51,777 nt of DNA from an uncultured Candidatus Saccharibacteria bacterium (GTDB lineage: Bacteria > Patescibacteriota > Minisyncoccia > UBA6257 > 2-01-FULL-56-20), in NCBI GenBank assembly GCA_964483915.1, contig CAZADL010000003.1, positions 1 to 51,777 of the forward strand, given 5' to 3'. Below the pieces are notes generated by a model, which was given only the letters and a program-made list of their open reading frames with translations, ran no database searches and was not told the origin of the DNA. This document shows, in pieces, positions 26,718 through 44,700 of the stretch. The stretch's first letter is position 1, and each line of letters begins with the position of its first letter. The translations under genes were made by a program, and so were the position numbers.

Positions 26718-27185
26718 ATGGCTTCTTTTGAGACACATTGGCAGGCACCAGAATTCGAGTTTCGTCCGAAAAGCGTTTCGTGGTATTGGATGTCCATCAT
26801 CCTCTCTGCCGCAATCATTGCGTTTGCAATCTGGGAGCGAAATTTTCTCTTCGGCATTTTCATCGTGATCGCCGAAATTCTTTTCATAGCGTGGGGCAAC
26901 GAGACGCCTGCCACCGTAAACTTCATGCTCACCGAAAACGATCTCGCGGTCGGCGAAGCAAAGCATTATCAGGTCAAGCTCTTTGAGAGTTTCAGCGTGA
27001 ACGAACTGGATGATGACTGGATCGAACTCTTTTTCACGTTCAAGGCAAAATTCCGGACCGCGCTCAAAATCATGCTGCCAAAAGAAAAGATCGAAGAAGT
27101 CCGCAGAAACCTCAAGCCGACCCTGCGCGAGGTAGAGTTCGAACCATCGCTTCTCGATTCCCTTGAAAAAATCATCGGATTCTAA
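26718..27185 (+). CDS. Hypothetical membrane protein
   Basis: The ORF has two TM helices (WYWMSIILSAAIIAFAIW, FLFGIFIVIAEILFIAW). The start is set at MASFETH. Confidence 0.5.
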   Translation: MASFETHWQAPEFEFRPKSVSWYWMSIILSAAIIAFAIWERNFLFGIFIVIAEILFIAWGNETPATVNFMLTENDLAVGEAKHYQVKLFESFSVNELDDDWIELFFTFKAKFRTALKIMLPKEKIEEVRRNLKPTLREVEFEPSLLDSLEKIIGF

Positions 27186-27203
27186 TAAGGTGAGAAAGTT
27201 CTG

Positions 27204-27275
27204 GCCCTCGTCGTTCAACGGATAGGACGCAAGATTGCGGATCTTGTGATAGAGGTTCGATTCCTCTCGGGGGCA
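27204..27275 (+). tRNA. tRNA-Arg (anticodon GCG)
   Basis: The fold is GCCCTCG-TC-GTTC-AACGGATA-GGAC-G-CAAGA-TTGCGGA-TCTTG-TGAT-AGAGG-TTCGATT-CCTCT-CGGGGGC-A. Confidence 0.8.
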
Positions 27276-28104
27276 CTTGTTTCATCGGTTGCCGCGAGAA
27301 CGAGCCGAAGGCGGCAAGGAAGAGCGTCTCCCGCAAGGTCGGCGATCCCCGTTTCGAGATGCCGCCATGCCTCCCGGGTTTCCCGCCCGTCTGCTTCACG
27401 GCGGGGTCGAGTCCGGCGTAGGCGATGATCTGGTCGATGCGCTGGGATCGTTCCAAAGGCAGGAGTTCGGCCAAGATGTTCGCCGCGAGGAACGGCGTGA
27501 TGCCAGGAATGCTGTCGAGGTACTTCCCGTCGTTGCCGCCGTTCCATTCTTTGATGATGCGCTTCTTCAGGGCTTCGCACTGCTTCACGAGATACGCCGA
27601 GGCGGGGACGGGCGACACCTTCCGGTATTCCTTGAGGTACCGCTCGTGCATGATGAAGTTGGTGGCGATCGCCCGCAGCTTCCAGTAGTGGCGGATGACT
27701 GCTTTCTTCCGCGTCATCTCCTCGGTCTCGACGAAGCGGTAGCCGTCGTTCTGGGAGGCGAGGAAGGCGAGATGCGCCACGTCCACCTTGTCGGTCTTGC
27801 GCTTCCTGATGGAAAGCCGCGCGATCTGTTTGGTATACAGGGGATTCACGACCTTCACGAAAAATCCGCCGTCCGCCAATGTCCGCGCCGCTTGCCCGTG
27901 GTACGGCCCCGTGCTTTCGAGGAGGATGGGTGTCTCGCCGTCCATGCCGCATTTCCTGAAATGGACGACGAACCGTTTGGGTCCTAGACTTGAATGGGGA
28001 AACGCGGCTGGCGGTTCTGTTACGCCGTCTGAGCGTCGAATGCAGGCCACCAGCTCGCGTTTTCCCACGTCGATGCCGATGGAGTAAGGGTGTGTTTATT
28101 CCAT
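27276..28104 (-). pseudogene. IS110-family (DEDD) transposase remnant
   Basis: The frame reads ATG GAA TAA then THPYSIGIDVGK... (DEDD N-terminal motif), ESTGPYH, VNPLYTKQ...RKRKTDKVDVAHLA and the C-terminal domain IPGITPFLAANILAEL...YAGLDPAVKQTGG...ISKRGSPTLRETLFLAAF. There is a premature TAA at codon 3. The usual C-terminal ~50 aa are missing, and the frame runs straight into tRNA-Arg. The region is visibly more GC-rich than its surroundings. Confidence 0.75.
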
Positions 28105-28429
28105 AATTTTTGATATTTTGTTGTCAAAGAAAGAAGAGAAAAGAGAAGAAAGAAACCAGATCGCAGGCCTGTTCGTTTTCGACGCTTTGGAGCGTAACCA
28201 GCAATCGGCGATTGGTATCGGTGCGGAGCGATATTCCCCTGCTGGTTGGTCAAAGCCAAAGGCAAGCGCGATCGTCTCCGCCGATATTATCCCTCTTCTC
28301 TTTCAGAGGATACAGGCAGGTGGTATGCCAAAAGCGAACCGAAACCGCCCCTCTGCCCGCCAAAAAATCCCACGCCAAAAAAATCTTCGGAACGAACCTC
28401 TTTCTCTCCAACCGTGATAATCCTCGATC
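28105..28429 (-). ncRNA. Non-coding region upstream of the IS110-type transposase; candidate IS110 bridge-RNA-like locus
   Basis: About 325 bp have no credible ORF. The region contains a 30-nt all-purine tract (28126-28155), an 8-bp stem AACCAGCA/TGCTGGTT (28196-28203 with 28240-28247) and a CCTCT/AGAGG hairpin. The position matches where IS110-group elements encode their ncRNA. Confidence 0.25.
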
Positions 28430-28828
28430 TCAAGATTCGCCGAACAGACGGAAGTGGTAAACCACGGCGAGATACGCGGCGGCGAAGATAAAGAACGTGA
28501 CAAGTCCGAGGGCGATGGCGACCCTTGCCCCGAACTTCGGCGCGAGGGTCGCGACAACGATCATATACGGCACCCATGAAACGATGGTGCCCACGAGCAC
28601 GAACCACGCGTGCTCACCAACCGCGCCGCCGCCCCTCGATTCGCCGATAAAAACATACGCGACGAGCGTGAAGACGGGCATGAGGGTCGCGAAACCGGAA
28701 AGCAGGCGCAAATTATTTTCCTCGAGCGCGACGATGAGGACGGTGAAGATGCCACCCGTGAGAAAGTAGATGAGATAATTTTTGATCTGCGGCCACATAC
28801 TTTCATTATAGAAAATCTGCGATAACAT
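28430..28828 (-). CDS. Small polytopic membrane protein (132 aa)
   Basis: Only the C-terminal 132 aa of the 292-aa ORF look real (four hydrophobic helices). The upstream part is antisense to the PAP2 gene. Confidence 0.55.
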   Translation of the reverse strand: MLSQIFYNESMWPQIKNYLIYFLTGGIFTVLIVALEENNLRLLSGFATLMPVFTLVAYVFIGESRGGGAVGEHAWFVLVGTIVSWVPYMIVVATLAPKFGARVAIALGLVTFFIFAAAYLAVVYHFRLFGES

Positions 28829-28843
28829 GCTACCATAGAACTT

Positions 28844-29332
28844 ATGGACGCCGTTATCATATTTATCGCCCAGTATTTTTATCTTTTTGCTCTCCTTGTC
28901 GGCGCGATCTTTTTTTTCAGGCAGCCGCGCAATGTTCAGAAGGGCATCGTGGTTTGTGGCATCGTCGTCGCGCCTCTCGCGTATCTCATTTCGCGGATCG
29001 CCGGACATTTCTATAATGATCCGCGACCGTTCGTCGCCGGCCATTTTATCCCCTTGATCGCCCATGCGGCCGACAACGGTTTCCCGTCCGACCATGTTCT
29101 CCTCGCGGGAGCCGTGGCGATGATCATCTGGTTCTTCAACAGAAAATGGAGCGTGATTCTTTGGATGTTCGCCATCCTCATCGGCTGGGCGCGCGTCGCG
29201 AGCGGCATCCACCATGTAACGGACATTGCGGGGAGCGTCGTGATCGTCCTCGCCGCCGGCACGGTATACTTTTTCTCCATAAAACTCGTTGCCGGGAAGC
29301 CGCCTCAAAAATCCGGGAACCCCGCAACATGA
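28844..29332 (+). CDS. PAP2-family phosphatase (undecaprenyl-diphosphatase-like)
   Basis: The PAP2 motifs NDPRPF, PSDH and SGIHHVTD occur in order within a polytopic membrane protein. Confidence 0.8.
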   Translation: MDAVIIFIAQYFYLFALLVGAIFFFRQPRNVQKGIVVCGIVVAPLAYLISRIAGHFYNDPRPFVAGHFIPLIAHAADNGFPSDHVLLAGAVAMIIWFFNRKWSVILWMFAILIGWARVASGIHHVTDIAGSVVIVLAAGTVYFFSIKLVAGKPPQKSGNPAT

Positions 29333-29663: not shown

Positions 29664-29735
29664 GCGGGTATCGTATAGCGGCTATTATGTGACCTTGCCA
29701 AGGTCAAGATACGGGTTCGACTCCCGTTACCCGCT
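29664..29735 (+). tRNA. tRNA-Gly (anticodon GCC)
   Basis: Acceptor GCGGGTA/TACCCGC, anticodon stem TGACC/GGTCA with loop TTGCCAA, T arm ACGGG-TTCGACT-CCCGT and discriminator T. Confidence 0.9.
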
Positions 29736-29738
29736 CAA

Positions 29739-29777
29739 CAAACAAAAGAATGCTCCTTGTGAGCGTTCTTTTGTTTG
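29739..29777 (+). terminator. Hairpin directly after tRNA-Gly
   Basis: A 12-bp stem CAAACAAAAGAA/TTCTTTTGTTTG has an inner GCTC/GAGC stem. Confidence 0.55.
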
Positions 29778-29785
29778 CGTGATCA

Positions 29786-29944
29786 TTACGGGAGTCGAAC
29801 CCGGGAAGGGGGTCGGGGAAACGGGAGTTTCCCCGTGTAGGAAGATTGTTGGAAACCGAGAGGTGTCCAAATCGCGGCGGAGCGCTTATTGAAATAAACA
29901 AGCGCGATCAGCCGCGATGGGTTCCACTCCCGTTACCCGCTCAA
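29786..29944 (+). repeat. tRNA-linked element, copy A (inverted T-arm copy, conserved 35-nt core, direct repeat of the tRNA-Gly 3' end)
   Basis: Positions 29788-29803 are the exact reverse complement of tRNA positions 29712-29727. The core at 29803-29837 is 34/35 identical to 38576-38610. Positions 29919-29944 repeat 29713-29738 at 25/26. Confidence 0.7.
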
Positions 29945-30402: not shown

Positions 30403-30627
30403 ATGAGCAAGAAAGAGACGATCTATGGCGTGGATGAGCTTGCGAAATTTTTGAGGGTCACGAGAGCGACGGTACGGGATTGGTGCAAACACGGCAAACT
30501 GCCAGCTTTTAAAATCGGTAAAGAGTGGAAAATTCGGGTGATAGATTTACAAAAGAGCATCAATGGGAAAGTGACGGCGAACCAAGCTAAAAGAGAGAGG
30601 GAGGGCGGGACGCCCCGACTTATCTAA
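30403..30627 (+). CDS. Excisionase-family helix-turn-helix DNA-binding protein
   Basis: ELAKFLRVTRATVRDWCKHGKLPAFKIGKEWKIRVIDL matches the excisionase/MerR-superfamily HTH pattern. Confidence 0.7.
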   Translation: MSKKETIYGVDELAKFLRVTRATVRDWCKHGKLPAFKIGKEWKIRVIDLQKSINGKVTANQAKREREGGTPRLI

Positions 30628-30966: not shown

Positions 30967-31557
30967 TTATTCAACGCCTAAATTTTTTTCATCTTCTTCG
31001 ATCATGGCCACCACTTTATGAAAGAGCGTTGTGGGGTCAGTGTCGAAGACGACCTTTCCCATGCCGCGATGGGCATCTTCCAGTATCTTTTTTATATCGT
31101 CCGTTGTGCCGCCGGTCCCGACGAGCACGCCTTGCGGTTTGTTGTCTTCAAATGCATCGGTAAATTCATTGAGCGTGCCGATCCTGCCGCCGGCATAGAT
31201 AACGGCATCAGCCGCGCGAGTCAAGATCAGGTTCCGCTCGGAATATCCGCCGCCGACATAGATGATGAGGTCGTGGTAATCAAGCGGCAGATGGTACTTT
31301 TGCACATGCTCGCGCTTGGTAGCGGCGGGAGAGATGCCGATCACGATGCCACCGGCCTTCTTCGCCCCCTTCGCGGCCCAATAGGGTGCGCCGGTCGTTG
31401 CGCCCGTCACGGTGACCATGCCATGTTCCGCAATAAGCCGCCCCAACATTTCAACCTCCGGCATCTCGTTTGGATTCATGAACGTCGTATCCGCAGCGCC
31501 AGAAATTGCAATCTTAAACTTCAATTGATAATCGGAGTTCATAATATGATTCTTCAT
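30967..31557 (-). CDS. LOG/TIGR00725-type (SLOG superfamily) Rossmann-fold protein
   Basis: KIAISGAAD, VTVTGATTGAPYWAAKGAKKAGGIVIGISP and DAVIYAGGRIGTLNEF match the TIGR00725/LOG pattern. Confidence 0.65.
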   Translation of the reverse strand: MKNHIMNSDYQLKFKIAISGAADTTFMNPNEMPEVEMLGRLIAEHGMVTVTGATTGAPYWAAKGAKKAGGIVIGISPAATKREHVQKYHLPLDYHDLIIYVGGGYSERNLILTRAADAVIYAGGRIGTLNEFTDAFEDNKPQGVLVGTGGTTDDIKKILEDAHRGMGKVVFDTDPTTLFHKVVAMIEEDEKNLGVE

Positions 31558-32900
31558 AATTCTACCACCTCTCTGAGCTTCGGCACCTCCGATATAATGG
31601 CGAGTTCATCCCGAATCTTTGCCGCAAGGACTTCGCTTGATTGTTCCTCGCCCTGCACGACAAAAACCTTCTTCAACGTTTTTCGCGCGGTCGTGAGCCA
31701 TGCCAAAAGATGCGGCTCGTCGGCGTGCGCGGAAAATCCCGGAATGTTCACCTTCTTGCACCGTACGGGCACCGTCTCGCCGAAGATCGAGACCTCCGGA
31801 GCGCCCTCCAAAATCCTCCGGCCGAGCGAACCCGATGCCTGGTAACCCACGAACAAAATCGTGCTCCGCGGATCAGGAAGATGCCGCACCTCGTGGTGGA
31901 GGATCCGTCCGCCATTCGACATGCCGGCACCGGCCATAATGATCTTCGGAGGCTTCACGTCATTGATGCGCTTTGACTGTTCGGTGGTAAGCGTAAGCTC
32001 TAACTCCTTAAAGTTCAGAATATCGTCGCCACCGCGCTCAAGGGCTTGGACGTCTTTGTTGAAATAGCTTTCATACTTTTTATAGACCGCCGTGAGTTTG
32101 ATCGCGAGCGGACTGTCGATAAAGACCGGTACGAGCGGAACGCGGCCTTCCTCAAAGAGCTGGTGGAGATAGAACAAAAGTTCCTGCGTCCGCTCCATGG
32201 CAAACGTCGGGATCATCAAGGTTCCGCCGGCCGTGACCGTGTCTTCGATCGCGCGCTCGAGCAGGTTTCTCCGTTCTGCCACGTCTTCATGCACACGGTC
32301 ACCGTATGTTGATTCGATGAGACAATAATCCACCTCCGGCAGCGCTTCGGTCGGCTTTATGATCGGCGCCGGCGAATTGCCGAGGTCGCCGGAGAATACA
32401 ATCGTTTTGCCTTCCGCTTTCACGAGAATGAAGGCCGATCCCAAAATATGCCCTGCATCATAGAGCTCAACCGTAAAGGGGCCGACCGAAACCGGCGTGT
32501 GGTATCTGAGCTTCTGCCACTGCGCGAGAACTTTGGTAATATCATTGTCGGTATAGAGCGGCGACTTTTTTTCACGCGCGGCTTCCGCAAGCAGCAGATG
32601 CTCGGAATCGTAGAGCATGAGATCGGCGAAATCTTTGGTTGCCGGCGTCGCGTAGATCGTGCCGGCGAATCCGGCCTTCACTAAGCTCGGCAGACGGCCA
32701 ATGTGATCCAAGTGCGAATGGGTGATGAAAACCGCCGTGATACTTTTTGCGTCATAAGGAAACGGCTGGAAGTTTTCTTTCTCCGCATAGTGACTCCCTT
32801 GATGCAGGCCACAATCGATCATGATGCGGGTGCCCCCGGATTCAAGAACATAGTTCGATCCCGTCGCTTCTCCTGTTCCACCGTAAAAAGTGAGTTTCAT
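31554..32900 (-). CDS. Metallo-beta-lactamase / beta-CASP family RNA-metabolising hydrolase
   Basis: It has HSHLDHIG (HxHxDH), DAGHILGS, the beta-CASP segment and a C-terminal SAHAD motif, at 448 aa. Confidence 0.8.
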   Translation of the reverse strand: MKLTFYGGTGEATGSNYVLESGGTRIMIDCGLHQGSHYAEKENFQPFPYDAKSITAVFITHSHLDHIGRLPSLVKAGFAGTIYATPATKDFADLMLYDSEHLLLAEAAREKKSPLYTDNDITKVLAQWQKLRYHTPVSVGPFTVELYDAGHILGSAFILVKAEGKTIVFSGDLGNSPAPIIKPTEALPEVDYCLIESTYGDRVHEDVAERRNLLERAIEDTVTAGGTLMIPTFAMERTQELLFYLHQLFEEGRVPLVPVFIDSPLAIKLTAVYKKYESYFNKDVQALERGGDDILNFKELELTLTTEQSKRINDVKPPKIIMAGAGMSNGGRILHHEVRHLPDPRSTILFVGYQASGSLGRRILEGAPEVSIFGETVPVRCKKVNIPGFSAHADEPHLLAWLTTARKTLKKVFVVQGEEQSSEVLAAKIRDELAIISEVPKLREVVEL

Positions 32901-38452: not shown

Positions 38453-38536
38453 GCCGAGGTGGCGGAACTGGCAGACGCACTGGCTTCAGGTGCCAGCGAT
38501 CGCAAGATCATAAGGGTTCAACTCCCTTCCTCGGCA
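38453..38536 (+). tRNA. tRNA-Leu (anticodon CAG)
   Basis: Acceptor GCCGAGG/CCTCGGC, anticodon stem CTGGC/GCCAG with loop TTCAGGT, a long variable arm, T arm AAGGG-TTCAACT-CCCTT and discriminator A. Confidence 0.9.
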
Positions 38537-38556
38537 CTTATGAGTAGAACATCGTT

Positions 38557-38691
38557 CCGAGGAAGGAAGTTGAACGGGAAAGGGGTCGGGGAAACGGGAG
38601 TTTCCCCGTGGTGGAGGCCGTTGGAATCAAGTGGTTCTAAAGCGCAGCCCCGTCTTGGCGTGGCGAGCAGTGAAACTCCCTTCCTCGGCAC
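38557..38691 (+). repeat. tRNA-linked element, copy B (inverted copy of the tRNA-Leu 3' half, conserved core, direct repeat of the tRNA 3' end)
   Basis: Positions 38557-38575 are the reverse complement of tRNA positions 38516-38534 (18/19). The core lies at 38576-38610. Positions 38674-38691 repeat 38520-38537 (18/18). Confidence 0.7.
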
Positions 38692-38715
38692 ATCCAAGAA
38701 AAAATATAAAAATCT

Positions 38716-40722
38716 ATGATCAAAAAAATGAATGAACCGGCTGGGTCCAAGGATCGGCCACACATAAAACCTCCCGAGGTCCGCTTTCGGCCGAAGGTAA
38801 GCGAGGAATATCGGGGGAAATCTTCCCGTCCTTTGCGCCATTTTTCGACCGAAGACATCGGACGACAGAATTTTCCCGATAACCGCCCGCACCATTCCCG
38901 TTCTTCTCGCGGCAGCCATAGCCGGCCTCGCAGAATGCCGCCAGGGGCGGCAAGAAAAACCGCCTCCGATAACCGAAAATGGGCTTCGTCGTCAACCTCA
39001 GCACCGCATGGCATAGCAGGACAACTGCGCATCAAATCCTCCGCAGACGAAGCGTCCCGAAAGGAGGCCGTTCGCCTGGTTCCTTTGGGTGGGCTTGAAG
39101 AGATCGGACGCAACTGTTCCTTCCTTGAATATAAAAATGAGATCGTGATCATCGACGTCGGCCTCCAATTTCCCGAAGAAGAAACACCGGGCATCGACTA
39201 TATCATCCCGAACATCTCGTACCTTGAGAAACGGAAAGAAAACATTCAGGCGATCATTCTGACGCACGGGCACTACGACCACATCGGCGGCCTGCCGCAT
39301 GTTCTCGCAAAACTTGGCAATCCCCCGATCTATGCTACCTCCATTACAAAAGCCATCATTGAAAAACGACAGGAAGATTTTCCGAACGCGCCGAAGATGA
39401 ACGTTATCACCGTGAAAGGCGGCGAGGAAATCAAGCTGTCAAACTATTTCACGGCATATTTCTTTGGCGTACCGCACACGATACCGGAGACGACGGGCGT
39501 GCTCCTCAAAACGCCGATCGGCAATGTGGTGCACTTTGCCGACTTCCGCGTAGAATATGATGACGACGGCAACCCGCAGGGACTCGATGAATTCGCTGCG
39601 GTTGGCAAAATGGGCGTGCACACGTTCATGGTGGACTCGACCGCCGCGGAAAAGCCCGGCCACTCCATCTCGGAGAAAACCGTTGAAAAAAATCTGGAGG
39701 AAATTTTCAAGCAAGCGGAAGGTCGCGTGATCGTGGCGACCTTCGCGTCGCTCCTTACCCGCATCGGCGAAATCATCAAGATCTGCGAACGCCTTGATCG
39801 GCGGGTCGCTCTCTCGGGTTACTCCATGAAAACGAACGTGCAGATCGCACAGAACCTCGGTTTCATCAAGGCACATGAAGGAACGATTATTCCGATCGAA
39901 GAGGCGCACAAAATAAGAGACAACAAAATTCTTATCTTATCGACCGGCGCGCAAGGCGAATCGAACGCCAGCTTGATGAAGATCATCACGGGGGAGCATC
40001 GGCATCTCACGATCAAGCCCGGCGACACCTTTGTGCTTTCCTCGTCCGTCATTCCCGGCAATGAACGGAGCGTACAATCAGTGAAAGATAACCTCGCGCG
40101 CCAAGGCGCAATCGTCTACCATTCCGCGCTGGTTGATATCCATTCATCCGGTCATGCGCCGAAGGATGACGTCAAACTGGTCATTGAACTCCTTAACCCA
40201 AAATTTCTTATGCCGATCCACGGCTATTACTTCATGCGCGCCGCAAACGGGATTTCCGCGCGCGAAGTCGGCATTCCGAAAGAAAACATAAAACTGATGG
40301 ATAATGGCCAAGTCGCCGAACTGACCAAAAACGACTTCACGATCACCGAGGAGACCGTGCCGGCGTTTTACGTCATGGTTGACGGTTTGGGGGTTGGCGA
40401 TGTTGAAGAGGTGGTCTTGCGTGATCGGCGGGCCTTGGCGCAAGAAGGTATGCTCGTCATTATCACGACCATTGACCGCGACAAGGGCAAGCTCCTGAAA
40501 AATCCCGACATTATATCGCGCGGCTTCATCTACCTTAAAGAGAATCAAGACATTGTTGAAGAGATACGCAAGCGCGTACGGAACGTTACCCAACGTTTGC
40601 CAAACTATCGCGACATTGAACCGGATTATCTAAAAACCCTCATCCGTGATCAGGTCGGGCAGTTCATCTATAACAAAACCCGCCGCCGCCCGATGATTCT
40701 GCCGGTCATCATCGAGATTTAG
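38716..40722 (+). CDS. rnj: Ribonuclease J with a basic low-complexity N-terminal extension of about 117 aa
   Basis: VRLVPLGGLEEIGRNCSFLEY, HGHYDHIGGLP, beta-CASP and C-terminal domains are present. The core begins near aa 118. Confidence 0.85.
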   Translation: MIKKMNEPAGSKDRPHIKPPEVRFRPKVSEEYRGKSSRPLRHFSTEDIGRQNFPDNRPHHSRSSRGSHSRPRRMPPGAARKTASDNRKWASSSTSAPHGIAGQLRIKSSADEASRKEAVRLVPLGGLEEIGRNCSFLEYKNEIVIIDVGLQFPEEETPGIDYIIPNISYLEKRKENIQAIILTHGHYDHIGGLPHVLAKLGNPPIYATSITKAIIEKRQEDFPNAPKMNVITVKGGEEIKLSNYFTAYFFGVPHTIPETTGVLLKTPIGNVVHFADFRVEYDDDGNPQGLDEFAAVGKMGVHTFMVDSTAAEKPGHSISEKTVEKNLEEIFKQAEGRVIVATFASLLTRIGEIIKICERLDRRVALSGYSMKTNVQIAQNLGFIKAHEGTIIPIEEAHKIRDNKILILSTGAQGESNASLMKIITGEHRHLTIKPGDTFVLSSSVIPGNERSVQSVKDNLARQGAIVYHSALVDIHSSGHAPKDDVKLVIELLNPKFLMPIHGYYFMRAANGISAREVGIPKENIKLMDNGQVAELTKNDFTITEETVPAFYVMVDGLGVGDVEEVVLRDRRALAQEGMLVIITTIDRDKGKLLKNPDIISRGFIYLKENQDIVEEIRKRVRNVTQRLPNYRDIEPDYLKTLIRDQVGQFIYNKTRRRPMILPVIIEI

Positions 40723-41106: not shown

Positions 41107-44100
41107 CTACGCCTTTTTTATTCCGATCCAAATTTTCTGGCCTTCCCATTTTCCGGATTCCTCCGCGTCAAATTTTTCGGAACGTGCGTACGAGATTGTT
41201 TTCGCGCCGATATCGGCCATAAATGTTTTCTCTTTCGTGCGCAGGGCGTTCGCAGCTTCTTCCGGCAAAACCGCGAAGATCGCTATGCGGTCCTTCGGCT
41301 GGAGCCCCGCTTTCTGCCGGAGCTCTTGCGCCATGCGCGCAATGTCGCGCACGATGCCTTCGGCCCGCAATTCCGGCGTGATCGCCGTATCAAGAACAAC
41401 TTCCCCTTTTCTCAATTTCGCACTGAGTTTTATCTCTTTTACATTCACCTCGTCAGCCAAGATTTTCAAAAGTTCTTTGTCGCGGGCAGTTTGCCATGTG
41501 CCCTTCGCAATTTCCATCTTCGCGAGCGGCTGGCGAATCTTAATCCCTACCTCCGCGCGTTTTGCAAGACCCTCGCTCGCAAGTTGGCGCATTTTTTTCA
41601 TACCTTCAAGCAACTTCATTCTCTCTCGAGGAGCCAAAAGGTGGCGTAATGATGGCCATGCTGCAAGGTGGATCGAAGGAGCTTCTTTTGTCATCTGTCG
41701 TTTCCTAAGTAGGCTCTGAAATATCGCCTCTGCAAGGAACGGCATGAAAGGGGCCGCAACCTTGCTTATCGTCAATAAACTTTCGAAAAGCGTATCAAAA
41801 AAAGCTTCATCGTGCCGTTTTCGGCTCCGTCGGAGATACCACGTCGACAGATCGTCAATATAATCTTGAATAGCGCGCGTGGCGTGAACTGTATCATATG
41901 CGTTCAGACATTGGGTCACCGCCTCATTCAATTCTGCGGTGCGCGTCAAAATCCACGTATCAAGAATTGTACACTTTTCACTTCTTTTCTTGTTTTTTTC
42001 TTTTTCGGGAAGATAGGTTGCAAAATATTTATAGACATTCACTAAGAGAAGTTCTACTTTGCGATATACCGCCTCGACGCCTTTTTCTGAAAAATTTAAG
42101 TTGTCTGCCTGCATCACAACAGAATTCATCAGATAGAACCTGATGCTGTCGGCCCCATATTTGTTGATCACAAGCCACGGATCCGGAAAGTTGTTTTTCG
42201 ATTTGCTCATTTTTGAACCGTCCCCGGCGAGGATCGTTCCTGTCGTCACCACGTTTTGAAACGGGGCTTTTTTGAACAAAATGAACGATATGACGTGCAT
42301 CACATAAAACCATGCACGAGTTTGCGCGATATATTCCGCAACAAACTGCGCCGGAAGATGCTTCTTAAAAGTATCTTTGTTTTCAAAAGGATAATGATAC
42401 TCCGCAAACGGCATTGACCCCGCTTCCATCCACGAATCGAATAACTCCGGGGTTCGGCGCATCGTACCGCGGCATTTAACGCATGGCAATGTTATTTCAT
42501 CGATGTATGGTCGATGCATGTCCGCTTCGCCGCCGTCATTTCGTGGAACGATTTCGAAATTAAGCTCGCGAATTTCGGCAAAGCTGATAAAATCGTTGGC
42601 GCGTTTTTCTTTCTCGGCGATCGCACGTTTCTCGCTCCACGCTTCTCCGACAGCGAAAAGCATCCATGTCGGATACTCATGCGTCACGATCAGAATATTT
42701 TTGCCTCCATATTTTTCCTCACAATCCTTCAGGAAATTCCATACGCGGGATCGTACATCCCTGAGGGATTCTCCGCCTTCCGGCCGTTTTTCAAAACGCG
42801 ATTGATAAGTCGGAAACATCTCGGCATACTTTTCGTCGCGGCGACCCATAAGCGTGGGCCCCAGATGGATTTCCTGAAGTCGCTTGTCGAGCACCACCTT
42901 TTCCCCTGTAAAAACCGACGCATCGATCTTTTCCGTTTCGTGTGTCCGCGTCACATCCGAAGCCACGATGATATCGAGCTTCATTTTTTTCTTCGCGAGT
43001 TCTTTTTTAAATTTCTCGATCGATGCCCCAACTTGCTTCCGCCCACGCGGCGTGAGATGTAAATATTTTCGCTCGCCGGAATCAAGAATGTCGAATATGT
43101 TGCTTTCGGCTTCGCCGTGACGCATCACCCAGTAACGATTCTTCGAACCACCCGCCCGAACCGAGAGCTCACGAAGTCCCCCGATCGCTTCTTCCTCACT
43201 GCATTTTTCGCACCTCCAAACCGGCAGAGGGTTTCCCCAGTAGCGGTTGCGCGAGATATTCCAATCCGGAGCCGCTTCAACGCTTTTTTGATAACGGCCG
43301 TATTTCAAGTGCGCGGGGAACCAATTGATCTCTTTTCTGTTTGACGCAATCAGTTTTTGCTTGATTTTTTGGACATTAATAAACCACGAGGGGATGGCGT
43401 TATAGAAAAGAACGTTTCCACACCGCCAACAAAATGGATAGGAATGGGTACTTCTTTCTTTTTTGAAAAGCAGCGGCTTCGGTTTGCGATTCTCCAGGTT
43501 TGAGATCACGAGCGCATCCGCTTTTTTAAAATATTGTCCGCGCAAGAACGTCGGAGCTTTGTCGTTAAAAACGCCTCGGTCGTCCAGCATCGGCACGACC
43601 GGTAATCCGATTTTCATGCCCAAATTATAATCGTCCTCGCCATAGACCACTGCCGTATGGACAATGCCAGTACCATCCGTCGTGGTAACAAAATCCGCGG
43701 GATACACTTTATAAGATTTTTCACTCTTTATTGCGGGGGTATCGAAAAGCGGTTCGTATTCAAGGCCAATGAGATCCATTCCGGAATACTGATAATTTAT
43801 CCTGCCGTCAGCCGCCAGTCCCAGATCCGAAAGCCGATCAACTGCGGCGATCAATATTTCCCCGCCCCGCGAAACTGGTTGGTAGCGTATATCCCGTCCA
43901 ACCGCAAGCGCCACATTTCCGGGTAATGTCCACGGCGTCGTCGTCCACGCCAAGAGATAAACATTCTCGCCTCGCAGATTTATTTTTTCTGGGTTTTTAA
44001 TTTTAAACTTCACGGTGACTGATTCCTCGATAACATCCTTATAGCTGTTATCCATCGCAACTTCGAAATTCGAAACCGGAGTTTCGCATCGGGGGCAGTA

Positions 44101-44700
44101 CAATAAAACTTTTCTTCCTTGATACACTAAATTTTTTTTATAGATTTCCTTAAATGCCCACCAGACCGATTCCATATAGTCGGTATCCATCGTTTTGTAG
44201 GAATCAGCGAATTCAACCCACCGCGCCATGCGACGGATCATTTTATCCCATTCATCGGCATAGCCCAGTACCATGCTTCGGCACGTCTCGTTAAACTTTT
44301 TAATGCCGATTTTCTCAATCTGCTTTTTACCGGAGATACCGAGTTTCCGCTCGACAATTTCTTCAATCGGCAAGCCATGACAATCCCATCCCCACCTGCG
44401 CCGCACATACCGGCCCTGCATTGTCTGATATCGCGGGATGACATCCTTGATGGTGGATGCCAAAATATGCCCATAGTGCGGAAGTCCTGTTGCAAAAGGC
44501 GGACCGTCGTAAAAAGTAAATGGCCTGTTTTTCCGCGTTTGCGACAAACTTTTTTCAAAAATATGATGCTCGTTCCAAAACGCCAAGACCCGCTCCTCAA
44601 GTTCCGGCAGATTGAACTCGCCTGCCAAAAAATCCGGCCGCGGAAAGACAGATTTTTTCTTACTCTTTGGTTCCTGCTTTTCCAGAGATTTTCTGACCAT
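41107..44700 (-). CDS. ileS: Isoleucine--tRNA ligase with an internal histidine-phosphatase-like insertion
   Basis: HIGH (PHYGH), the CP1 editing region, KMSKS and the anticodon-binding region are present. The length is 1197 aa because of an insert at about aa 520-722. Confidence 0.92.
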   Translation of the reverse strand: MVRKSLEKQEPKSKKKSVFPRPDFLAGEFNLPELEERVLAFWNEHHIFEKSLSQTRKNRPFTFYDGPPFATGLPHYGHILASTIKDVIPRYQTMQGRYVRRRWGWDCHGLPIEEIVERKLGISGKKQIEKIGIKKFNETCRSMVLGYADEWDKMIRRMARWVEFADSYKTMDTDYMESVWWAFKEIYKKNLVYQGRKVLLYCPRCETPVSNFEVAMDNSYKDVIEESVTVKFKIKNPEKINLRGENVYLLAWTTTPWTLPGNVALAVGRDIRYQPVSRGGEILIAAVDRLSDLGLAADGRINYQYSGMDLIGLEYEPLFDTPAIKSEKSYKVYPADFVTTTDGTGIVHTAVVYGEDDYNLGMKIGLPVVPMLDDRGVFNDKAPTFLRGQYFKKADALVISNLENRKPKPLLFKKERSTHSYPFCWRCGNVLFYNAIPSWFINVQKIKQKLIASNRKEINWFPAHLKYGRYQKSVEAAPDWNISRNRYWGNPLPVWRCEKCSEEEAIGGLRELSVRAGGSKNRYWVMRHGEAESNIFDILDSGERKYLHLTPRGRKQVGASIEKFKKELAKKKMKLDIIVASDVTRTHETEKIDASVFTGEKVVLDKRLQEIHLGPTLMGRRDEKYAEMFPTYQSRFEKRPEGGESLRDVRSRVWNFLKDCEEKYGGKNILIVTHEYPTWMLFAVGEAWSEKRAIAEKEKRANDFISFAEIRELNFEIVPRNDGGEADMHRPYIDEITLPCVKCRGTMRRTPELFDSWMEAGSMPFAEYHYPFENKDTFKKHLPAQFVAEYIAQTRAWFYVMHVISFILFKKAPFQNVVTTGTILAGDGSKMSKSKNNFPDPWLVINKYGADSIRFYLMNSVVMQADNLNFSEKGVEAVYRKVELLLVNVYKYFATYLPEKEKNKKRSEKCTILDTWILTRTAELNEAVTQCLNAYDTVHATRAIQDYIDDLSTWYLRRSRKRHDEAFFDTLFESLLTISKVAAPFMPFLAEAIFQSLLRKRQMTKEAPSIHLAAWPSLRHLLAPRERMKLLEGMKKMRQLASEGLAKRAEVGIKIRQPLAKMEIAKGTWQTARDKELLKILADEVNVKEIKLSAKLRKGEVVLDTAITPELRAEGIVRDIARMAQELRQKAGLQPKDRIAIFAVLPEEAANALRTKEKTFMADIGAKTISYARSEKFDAEESGKWEGQKIWIGIKKA

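Follow-up and report, generated by a model that had tools for sequence, protein, structure and literature searches.

The CTX phage integrates by way of a folded single-stranded attP(+) site, which XerCD recombines with dif. To our knowledge, the order left in the chromosome, a site (A), a spacer (B), an inverted copy of the site (IR), a body and a second copy of the site (A'), is known only from CTX-phage attP(+) integrated at dif. The same order occurs in a short element, here called copy B, that lies between tRNA-Leu(CAG) and the RNase J gene (rnj) of an uncultured Candidatus Saccharibacteria bacterium. The DNA analysed, referred to as the window, is the 51,777-nucleotide stretch at positions 1 to 51,777 of contig CAZADL010000003.1 (forward strand; GenBank assembly GCA_964483915.1). 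As in CTX-type integrative mobile elements exploiting Xer (IMEX), a stem made with the inverted copy imitates the target, a short unpaired heterology lies by the putative crossover, and no integrase gene of the element's own would be needed. Unlike IMEX, the element targets the ends of tRNA, rpsI, rpoD, rplL and 23S rRNA genes instead of dif, its body is a non-coding core of 70-150 nt instead of a phage genome, and its arms vary with the target.

Integron attC sites and cassettes offer a second comparison, being sequence-diverse imperfect hairpins that are recognised by structure on one folded strand and belong to very small mobile units. The element differs from them in having neither the R''/R' core-site consensus in attC polarity nor intI or a cassette array, and in that its conserved core is not part of the hairpin and its arms reproduce sequence of the adjacent gene. 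Assignment as an integron cassette was rejected: RYYYAAC...GTTRRRY is absent, the hairpin base 5'-GTTC...GAAC-3' is found at tRNA targets only and is unrelated elsewhere, and no integrase is among the neighbours. The attachment (att) sites of tRNA-directed tyrosine integrases, in their T-loop sublocation, share with the element a repeat that runs from the T-arm to the 3' end and an upstream copy that keeps the tRNA intact. Unlike these sites, the element has only 110-270 nt between its repeats, an extra inverted copy, one core for many tRNAs, and targets other than tRNAs.

Tentatively, copy B is read here as a non-coding insertion, mobilised in trans as a folded single strand, that belongs to a Patescibacteria-wide family and takes its arms from the target as template. 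The family settles behind conserved, highly expressed genes, mostly tRNAs, without breaking them. It appears to be undescribed, as full-text searches of the literature found no description of the element.

Copy B is an insertion between tRNA-Leu and rnj

Comparison with relatives establishes the nature of copy B. Named relatives of the window RNase J belong to Patescibacteria/Paceibacterota, and in three relatives (L001, L003 and L005; RNase J 80-81% identical) tRNA-Leu(CAG) keeps the same position in the gene order SecG - solute-binding protein - tRNA-Leu(CAG) - (HIT or GrpB gene, or nothing) - RNase J - isoleucyl-tRNA synthetase (IleRS). Behind this tRNA, all three have ordinary spacer or another gene, and the core profile finds no match there. 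Copy B is an insertion, because these syntenic relatives with tRNA-Leu have no element; for the same reason, a conserved tRNA-Leu/rnj regulatory region is not supported. An earlier note on this DNA had proposed to check the region for conservation. The region turns out to be unconserved at this locus, yet the element is strongly conserved elsewhere, and the two observations together form the pattern of a mobile insertion.

Copy B takes up 138-154 bases of the interval from tRNA-Leu to rnj, and all its parts are read on the + strand. The intact host gene, whose 3' end the element copies, is tRNA-Leu(CAG) at 38453-38537; the ARAGORN and Rfam calls (51.8 bits, Rfam end at 38536) agree with its placement in the earlier note. 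Segment A (38516-38537) extends from the tRNA T-loop to the 3' end and forms the 5' strand of a long hairpin, H1, which emerges from the inverted repeat and as a helix in both RNA and DNA folds. The 16-nt tip of H1, segment B (38538-38553, TTATGAGTAGAACATC), is delimited by sequence and fold. The inverted arm (IR, 38554-38575) is the reverse complement of A and abuts the core directly, and about 100 relatives are alike in its position and logic. The pairing of this arm with the tRNA 3' half had been noticed before, and the repeat search extends it to 22 nt, with 91% complementarity between 38516-38537 and 38554-38575.

The core opens with J1 (38576-38586), a conserved purine-rich strand (GGGAAAGGGGT) of near-invariant columns in a 64-sequence alignment. 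P2 (38587-38608) follows as a 9-bp hairpin, CGGGGAAAC-GGGA-GTTTCCCCG, seen in the folds and in compensatory variants of diverged members. J2 (38609-38620) is again a conserved purine-rich strand, GTG-GNGGA, with invariant G34/T/G and GGA columns. P3 (38621-38640) is a hairpin, TTGGAATC-AAGT-GGTTCTAA, supported by covariation as a variant of the family's xxAAACC-loop-GGTTTxx. The variable region after it (P4, 38641-38669), marked out by folds and core comparison, is peculiar to copy B.

The repeat search places A', the second copy of the tRNA 3' segment, at 38670-38691. Within it, GA replaces the T-loop TC at 38672-38673, and 38674-38691 then repeats 38520-38537 at 18 of 18 positions. This distal repeat, already reported in the earlier note, is beyond chance: the 18-mer and its inverted copy are the sole matches in the window, against a shuffle expectation of 0.02. 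It ends 24 nt upstream of the rnj ATG (38716), as had been claimed. The spacer up to the start codon, B' (38692-38715), is probably native, in view of a weak alignment with the tRNA-Leu/rnj spacer of L005 whose score 35 of 1000 shuffles reach. The RNase J gene itself (38716-40722, +; Pfam RNase_J_b_CASP and RNase_J_C) lies outside the element, and its MIKK... start is conserved among relatives.

On the + strand, from the tRNA-Leu promoter to the rnj ATG, no promoter-like or terminator-like site was found, and the sole promoter-like site for copy B precedes tRNA-Leu. In the absence of a + strand terminator-like site before it, rnj is therefore probably transcribed through copy B. The suggestion that the element could be part of the RNase J 5' untranslated region is thus supported: with the 24-nt gap and no intervening promoter-like or terminator-like site found, copy B probably lies within the rnj leader. 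Any effect on RNase J is probably a by-product.

Both alternative long helices foreseen in the earlier note, in which the partner of the inverted arm is either the tRNA 3' half or the distal repeat, occur in the predicted folds, the second being weaker (18 nt, 89% complementary). When the fold is predicted for the entire co-transcript, the 3' half of the tRNA is taken up by the inverted arm, and the distal copy becomes the partner of the tRNA 5' strand. Such helices in a tRNA-Leu/element co-transcript would harm tRNA maturation. The RNA fold of copy B reaches -62.2 kcal/mol (z = -2.7 against shuffles).

The 35-nt core at 38576-38610 has one further copy in the window, at 29803-29837 behind tRNA-Gly as previously described, with 1 mismatch and a shuffle expectation of 0, and the family core profile matches only these two places. 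The sister, copy A, was delimited by ARAGORN, repeat search and core match (29664-29944, +). On the same strand, it consists of the host tRNA-Gly(GCC) (29664-29736, ARAGORN), segment A (29711-29727), segment B with a terminator-like hairpin (29741-29779), the inverted arm (29788-29803), J1 (29804-29813), P2 (29814-29835), P3 (29849-29870), P4 (29871-29918) and A' (29919-29944), which has one T-loop substitution at 29925. The two copies have diverged, with cores 62% identical, and the RNA fold of copy A is the stronger (-76.3 kcal/mol, z = -4.5 against shuffles). That they share the core is correct; that they share nothing else is not, since a second-hairpin consensus, TTGGAA..., is also common to both (38621-38640 and 29849-29870). 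For an empty-site comparison of copy A, the closest relatives by the PAP2 gene are at most 75% identical and non-syntenic.

A family spread across Patescibacteria

The family counts come from a scan of one genome per species (185,579 species) with the pattern GGGGAAAC-N4-GTTTCCCCGTG. At least 120 loci match, and about 116 of those listed are genuine, almost all of them in Patescibacteria. Four listed matches are chance hairpins, in Leptolyngbya, Vreelandella, an actinomycete and another cyanobacterium; they score 17-21 bits with the core profile, compared with 31-63 bits for the other listed loci. The hosts are labelled Parcubacteria/Paceibacteria, Jorgensen-, Taylor-, Niyogi-, Kaiser-, Lipton-, Nomura-, Wolfe-, Uhr- and Moranbacteria or Minisyncoccia, many listed entries bear the label 'Saccharibacteria', and two contigs are labelled otherwise (Gammaproteobacteria, Bacteroidetes). 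They comprise dozens of metagenome-assembled genomes (MAGs), complete chromosomes included. Several loci per genome are frequent, with up to 6 per assembly among the matches listed. The hairpin pattern had 0 matches in 2.9 million viral contigs.

Common anatomy and target genes

Throughout the family, the unit can be written as gene end A-B / reverse complement of A / core / A'-B', where A-B is the end of an intact gene. A same-strand tRNA lies upstream in 58 of the 124 listed core occurrences, ending 14-190 nt before P2 and covering 16 amino-acid identities; neighbouring tRNAs on the opposite strand number only 2 among the listed loci. The tRNA 3' end is repeated in 52 of these 58 loci, and the repeat ends 111-270 nt past the tRNA. 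In about 20 of the 52, exact identity begins inside the T-loop, 15 nt before the tRNA ends; for most others the start falls within 12-25 nt of that end. Directly before the core, the IR is the reverse complement of the T-loop, the T-stem 3' strand and a variable part of the acceptor strand. Inverted arms measure 13-25 nt and direct repeats 8-100 nt.

The same rule governs targets of other kinds. In rpsI (five genomes), rpoD and rplL, the target is the terminal 20-85 nt; behind the 23S 3' end, a hairpin of the 23S-5S spacer serves as target, as do sequences upstream of secA. A specific link of the element to tRNAs, as had been supposed, is not supported, given these members at rpsI, rpoD, rplL and 23S rRNA ends.

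The inverted arm fits the upstream copy better in 82 loci and the downstream copy better in 14. A few bases past its start, A' carries a heterology of 1-4 nt, which at tRNA loci alters T-loop positions 55-58: GTTCGAT becomes GTGAGAT or GTGAAAC, TTCG becomes TTCC, TTCGA becomes TTCGC, or there is an added GCGAAGC mini-hairpin. Members upstream of secA have GCGTGCTC in place of GGAGCTC. The position of segment B is held in other loci by a terminator-like or a GCGAAGC-type mini-hairpin, and many loci have a terminator-like hairpin between the tRNA and the inverted arm or core. In L061, L094, L109 and L075, one uninterrupted palindrome begins at the T-loop, takes in the acceptor strand and reaches the apex of the terminator-like hairpin that belongs to the tRNA. 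A single member, L073, was seen without IR or repeat; its arm-less core (574-656) takes up the 85 nt that separate tRNA-Tyr from tRNA-Thr in a cluster of four tRNA genes.

Core structure

The core is a conserved folded unit, ordered J1, P2, J2, P3 and variable hairpin. An alignment of 64 members shows almost no variation in J1 (GAAGGGGGTC), in the 9-bp P2 or at the beginning of J2 (GTG-GNGGA). P2 is preset by the search pattern, and its variation is read from diverged members found by profile, which carry the compensatory pairs GGGAGA/TCTCCC, GGGAAAAC/GTTTTCCC and GGAGGAAC/GTTCCTCC. P3 was tested by an explicit stem search and a gap-free sub-alignment, in place of RNAalifold on a MAFFT alignment; the latter recovered P2 alone, because differences in loop length misalign the P3 3' strand. 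In the 39 gap-free sequences, 96.2% of cells are paired and 77 double changes occur, compared with 22.8 +/- 5.2 in shuffles (0 of 500 reach the observed value), and the signal collapses in every slid register. Optional variable hairpins lie between J2 and P3 and past P3. A pseudoknot between the P2 loop and the 3' region was rejected as a general feature, as it fits only the subfamily with a TCCG loop (CTCCGG / CCGGAG).

Mobility and re-tailoring of the arms

Presence and absence of the element differ between related genomes. In L053 and L055, two different cores stand in series behind one tRNA; insertions have therefore piled up at one site. Core-less units are found in L030 and L032, and in L030 the whole A-B-IR hairpin is duplicated (100 nt at 97%). 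At L030 1600-1625 and at +100 to +125 of L032 (oriented), the A-B-IR hairpin is kept, with only GGA(AA)-(A)CGAC in the place of the core, which seems to have been lost except for a few bases at either end.

Pairs of loci show how core and arms behave when the target changes. In JBBTTA01, the core behind tRNA-Glu shares 93% identity over 85 nt with the one behind tRNA-Arg, and the arms of each match its own tRNA. Likewise, the cores of L109 (tRNA-Arg) and L118 (tRNA-Met), from two assemblies, are 94% identical. Near-identical cores with different arms mean, therefore, that arms are re-tailored for each site and not simply inherited with the core. The earlier proposal of a modular element, as opposed to a duplicated locus, is confirmed by these pairs behind different tRNAs and by the recurrence of one core with locally matched arms at about 116 listed loci.

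Some relatives, termed type M, are self-contained units of 240-300 nt with a hairpin of their own at each end and the termini TTTAWT...TTTATT/TTTAC. At least 6 near-identical copies occupy unrelated sites in one Taylorbacteria MAG (MHSB01), and three other MAGs hold several copies. Like miniature inverted-repeat transposable elements (MITEs) and the IS200-IS605-derived palindrome-associated transposable elements (PATEs), the element is short, non-coding, multi-copy, hairpin-rich and presumably mobilised in trans. Only type M resembles PATEs in its end hairpins and termini, and only type M shares with MITEs the many near-identical, dispersed copies. The tRNA-linked form, unlike a MITE, has neither fixed terminal inverted repeats nor a constant short target-site duplication, and its arms are target sequence. 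The type M copies L050 and L079 of MHSB01 each enclose another small element, about 105 nt long (GGGACTGTTGCCGAAT...ATTCGGCAACAGTCCC), which is also present elsewhere in that genome (flanks of L018 and L095).

Proposed mechanism and alternative explanations

The favoured reading, that of a trans-mobilised insertion of a folded single strand, suggests the following course. The inverted arm and the copy of the gene end would form a stem that imitates the target, and recombination or strand transfer would occur just 3' of the heterology, which in tRNAs is where T-loop and T-stem meet. One strand exchange of the folded hairpin with the duplex target could leave A-B-IR-body-A', with replication completing the event. 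The heterology near the start of exact identity would then represent the unpaired central region of the hairpin site. Upon each move, the arms would be rewritten from the new target, maybe by fold-back or template-switch copying; fold-back copying or quasi-palindrome correction comes into view because the hairpin in many loci is a continuous palindrome through the tRNA terminator. The mobilising enzyme would act in trans.

The folded strand is probably the + (sense) strand, and DNA is more likely than RNA. The end bases of the 4-nt P2 loop are G..A in 64 of the 119 distinct members listed, Watson-Crick in 45 and other in 10, with loops such as GGTA, GATA and GGCA. Hairpins closed down to a loop of two bases are feasible in DNA and not in RNA. 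C-GNA-G mini-hairpins, with all four bases at N, number 96 on the + strand, compared with 39 +/- 6 in shuffles and 30 on the - strand. For a single-stranded circular substrate like that of CTX-type integration, this + strand bias would be an indirect sign only. In DNA, mini-hairpins of the GCGNAGC/GCGNNAGC kind have an extraordinary stability, which is much lower in RNA; they mark sites of single-strand initiation (PMC13037366). The single-strand initiation signals and origins of single-stranded DNA (ssDNA) phages and rolling-circle plasmids are likewise orientation-specific, non-coding and strongly folded, with GNA/GNNA mini-hairpins (PMC13037366). The element differs from them as a chromosomal insertion with target-derived arms and no replicon attached.

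Several points weigh against the favoured reading. No recombinase, transposase or reverse transcriptase lies consistently near the element (within 3.5 kb, about 116 listed loci), and the mechanism consequently draws on topology and analogy. All-against-all clustering of the open reading frames (ORFs) within 3.5 kb of 124 cores gave housekeeping clusters only (SecA, S9, DnaX, ABC ATPase, RF2 and others). Arms that change with the target are not explained by a carried CTX-type hairpin site alone, and the lack of a common target sequence is hard to reconcile with a sequence-specific tyrosine recombinase. Segment B may be native or element-borne: the L005 alignment, which lends marginal support to a native B', gives none for these 16 nt past the tRNA (77 of 1000 shuffles reach the score). 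Copy B is itself probably transcribed, GNRA-like loops and the arm-less L073 core would fit an RNA product equally, and a strand test on arm mismatches (G.T vs A.C) gives a weak + strand excess, 28 vs 19 and 14 vs 9.

A possible but rather unlikely variant sees the family as a protein-free, homology-programmed integration module, in which trans (possibly host) machinery would read the core and the arms alone would specify the site, being copied from the target in both orientations at each move. A single system could therefore enter behind every tRNA or conserved gene and leave it undamaged. Such a module might be tied to the uptake of ssDNA in naturally competent members of the candidate phyla radiation (CPR).

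Less likely again is an explanation in which the core is the gene of a small structured RNA, co-transcribed with highly expressed genes and cut out by tRNA- or RNase III-type processing. The arms would be processing stems, the RNA would have a cellular or selfish function of its own, and its spread would be secondary. Such a gene would account for the orientation, nearly always that of the upstream gene (58 same-strand against 2 opposite-strand tRNAs), for the arm-less L073 core between two tRNAs, and for the probable transcription of copy B within the rnj leader. Covarying hairpins, conserved junction strands, many GNRA-like loops and RNA folds stronger than shuffles (z = -2.7 to -4.6) also suit it. 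It is opposed by the terminator-like hairpin that parts tRNA from core in many loci, by P2 loops such as GGTA, GATA and GGCA, and by the 45 P2 loops with Watson-Crick ends, which would leave 2-nt loops, infeasible in RNA. DNA is also indicated by the C-GNA-G mini-hairpins, tRNA mimicry is impossible for the arms at protein-gene targets, and the distribution is patchy, with arrays, decay and bursts and no Rfam family.

The Rfam searches covered the 4227 families of Rfam 15, and no family fits. The whole window at gathering scores gave tRNAs only. With E up to 5-10, both copies and a type M relative gave only tRNAs above threshold, the best other matches being miRNA-like hairpins about 60 bits or more below the gathering score (E about 0.04-0.06 or worse). 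Ten non-tRNA loci returned rRNA and tRNA only. A group I intron was rejected (no Intron_gpI match at E<10; arm pairing without U.G; a core of about 70-90 nt); a putative 12-nt identity to Tetrahymena P4/J4-5/P5 serves as a lead only. Hammerhead or HDV-like ribozymes were dismissed for want of a match to their Rfam models. A retron non-coding RNA was considered for its inverted arms, but no reverse transcriptase is among the neighbour clusters inspected. A solitary CRISPR-like repeat and an SRP-like GGAAGG motif were set aside, as was a Shine-Dalgarno or CsrA sponge, J2 not always being GGAGG, and a TIGR array, whose 36-nt box C/D unit is different (PMC12045711).

It is doubtful that the element encodes a guide RNA, with the IR, 5' of a scaffold, directing a trans-acting RNA-guided enzyme (IS110-type, IscB/TnpB-type or like that of CRISPR-associated transposons) to the neighbouring gene end for homing or retention. 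Among RNA-guided transposons, homing to tRNA genes and conserved gene 3' ends is known. As with IS110 bridge RNAs, IscB/TnpB omega RNAs and homing CRISPR RNAs, a segment complementary to the adjacent conserved gene end stands beside a structured scaffold, in guide-then-scaffold layout; tRNA and conserved gene ends are shared landing sites; and the arms are programmable across targets. An IS110-family remnant also lies by tRNA-Arg in the same window. Unlike those systems, the element has no effector gene (none within 3.5 kb at about 116 listed loci), and jackhmmer with the window IS110 protein finds that protein only. The scaffold lies outside the Rfam families, and the long complementarity to its own flank is variable in length and register. 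A nuclease so guided would attack itself, because the guide target lies in the element's own locus. The second sense copy, A', and the DNA-type loops would go unexplained. The two internal loops of bridge RNAs, with short guides for target and donor, may or may not have a counterpart in the element: J1 and J2 are conserved purine-rich strands rather than variable guides, and a donor sequence is not defined.

Very little speaks for relics of integrase-mediated tRNA integration, in which the repeats would be attL/attR of a deleted prophage or island and the core leftover arm-site DNA. Direct repeats from the T-arm to the tRNA 3' end are typical of T-loop-type att sites, which those of the element resemble, and an excisionase-family HTH_17 gene lies 460 nt past copy A. 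Relics would, however, decay independently and not keep a common core beside an inverted arm. The compact unit of 110-270 nt with covarying hairpins recurs at about 116 listed loci and many targets with no integrase, no tyrosine recombinase being found within 3.5 kb of any of them, and the viral contigs hold no match. Least credible of all, and largely refuted by the comparison with relatives, is a leader of the host that would act in cis and use two alternative helices to link RNase J expression to tRNA-Leu status: the helices are mutually exclusive and the element ends 24 nt before the rnj ATG, but relatives have no element in the same intergenic region, the family adjoins unrelated downstream genes and also stands before convergent genes, and no T-box or other leader family matches.

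Other features of the window and of related loci

A truncated IS110-family transposase (DEDD_Tnp_IS110 + Transposase_20; 27172-28098, -) overlaps tRNA-Arg(GCG) (27204-27276, +). It has no ATG, GTG or TTG start ahead of its GIDVGK motif, and the frame runs antisense into the tRNA. The adjoining non-coding stretch of 330 nt (28099-28430) is the expected place of a bridge RNA. The remnant lies 1.6 kb from copy A and adjoins no core. No second copy of the tRNA-Arg end was found past it, and a 12-nt inverted match was judged to be chance.

The excisionase-family HTH_17 protein (74 aa; 30403-30627, +) has no integrase with it in the window; in L126, a contig with a 75%-identical PAP2 gene, HTH_17 is followed directly by a tyrosine integrase. 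Jackhmmer searches seeded with the HTH_17 protein, the IS110 protein and an integrase turned up no match in the vicinity of other copies, and neither the IS110 remnant nor the HTH_17 gene of the window is linked to other family members. A long ORF at 28430-29308 (-) is probably spurious; the real gene there encodes the PAP2 phosphatase (28844-29332, +), for which about 190 homologues reach E <= 1e-20.

The window holds two beta-CASP ribonucleases, RNase J (38716-40722, +) and a Beta-Casp/RMMBL protein (31554-32900, -). Each lies about 1.6 kb or less from one copy of the element, probably by coincidence. RNase J has an N-terminal extension of about 100-130 residues before its metallo-beta-lactamase domain (window 38716-39100), common to relatives of 630-710 aa. 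Its neighbour IleRS (41107-44700, -) contains an inserted histidine-phosphatase domain (His_Phos_1, residues 524-683) that is conserved in relatives including L001 and L003. At L003 2226-2355, a 29-nt 5' fragment of the usual tRNA-Leu(CAG) stands just upstream of a different, complete tRNA-Leu(CAG) and looks like the displaced 5' end after gene replacement.

Significance

CPR/Patescibacteria account for a large part of bacterial diversity, and very little of their mobile DNA has been charted. The family is widespread among them (at least 120 loci, at one genome per species) and stands beside essential genes, with an architecture matched by no catalogued class of element. If the target does write the arms, this would be a new route of site-specific, reprogrammable insertion that spares the target gene, of mechanistic and potentially engineering interest. 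Should the homology-programmed module be the true account, it would be a natural form of retargetable insertion unlike those based on transposases, integrases, CRISPR or bridge RNAs. Through their mimicry of tRNA 3' ends and gene ends, the units may also confuse the annotation of tRNAs, att sites and pseudogene fragments, and they may put long hairpins into the leaders of genes such as rnj.

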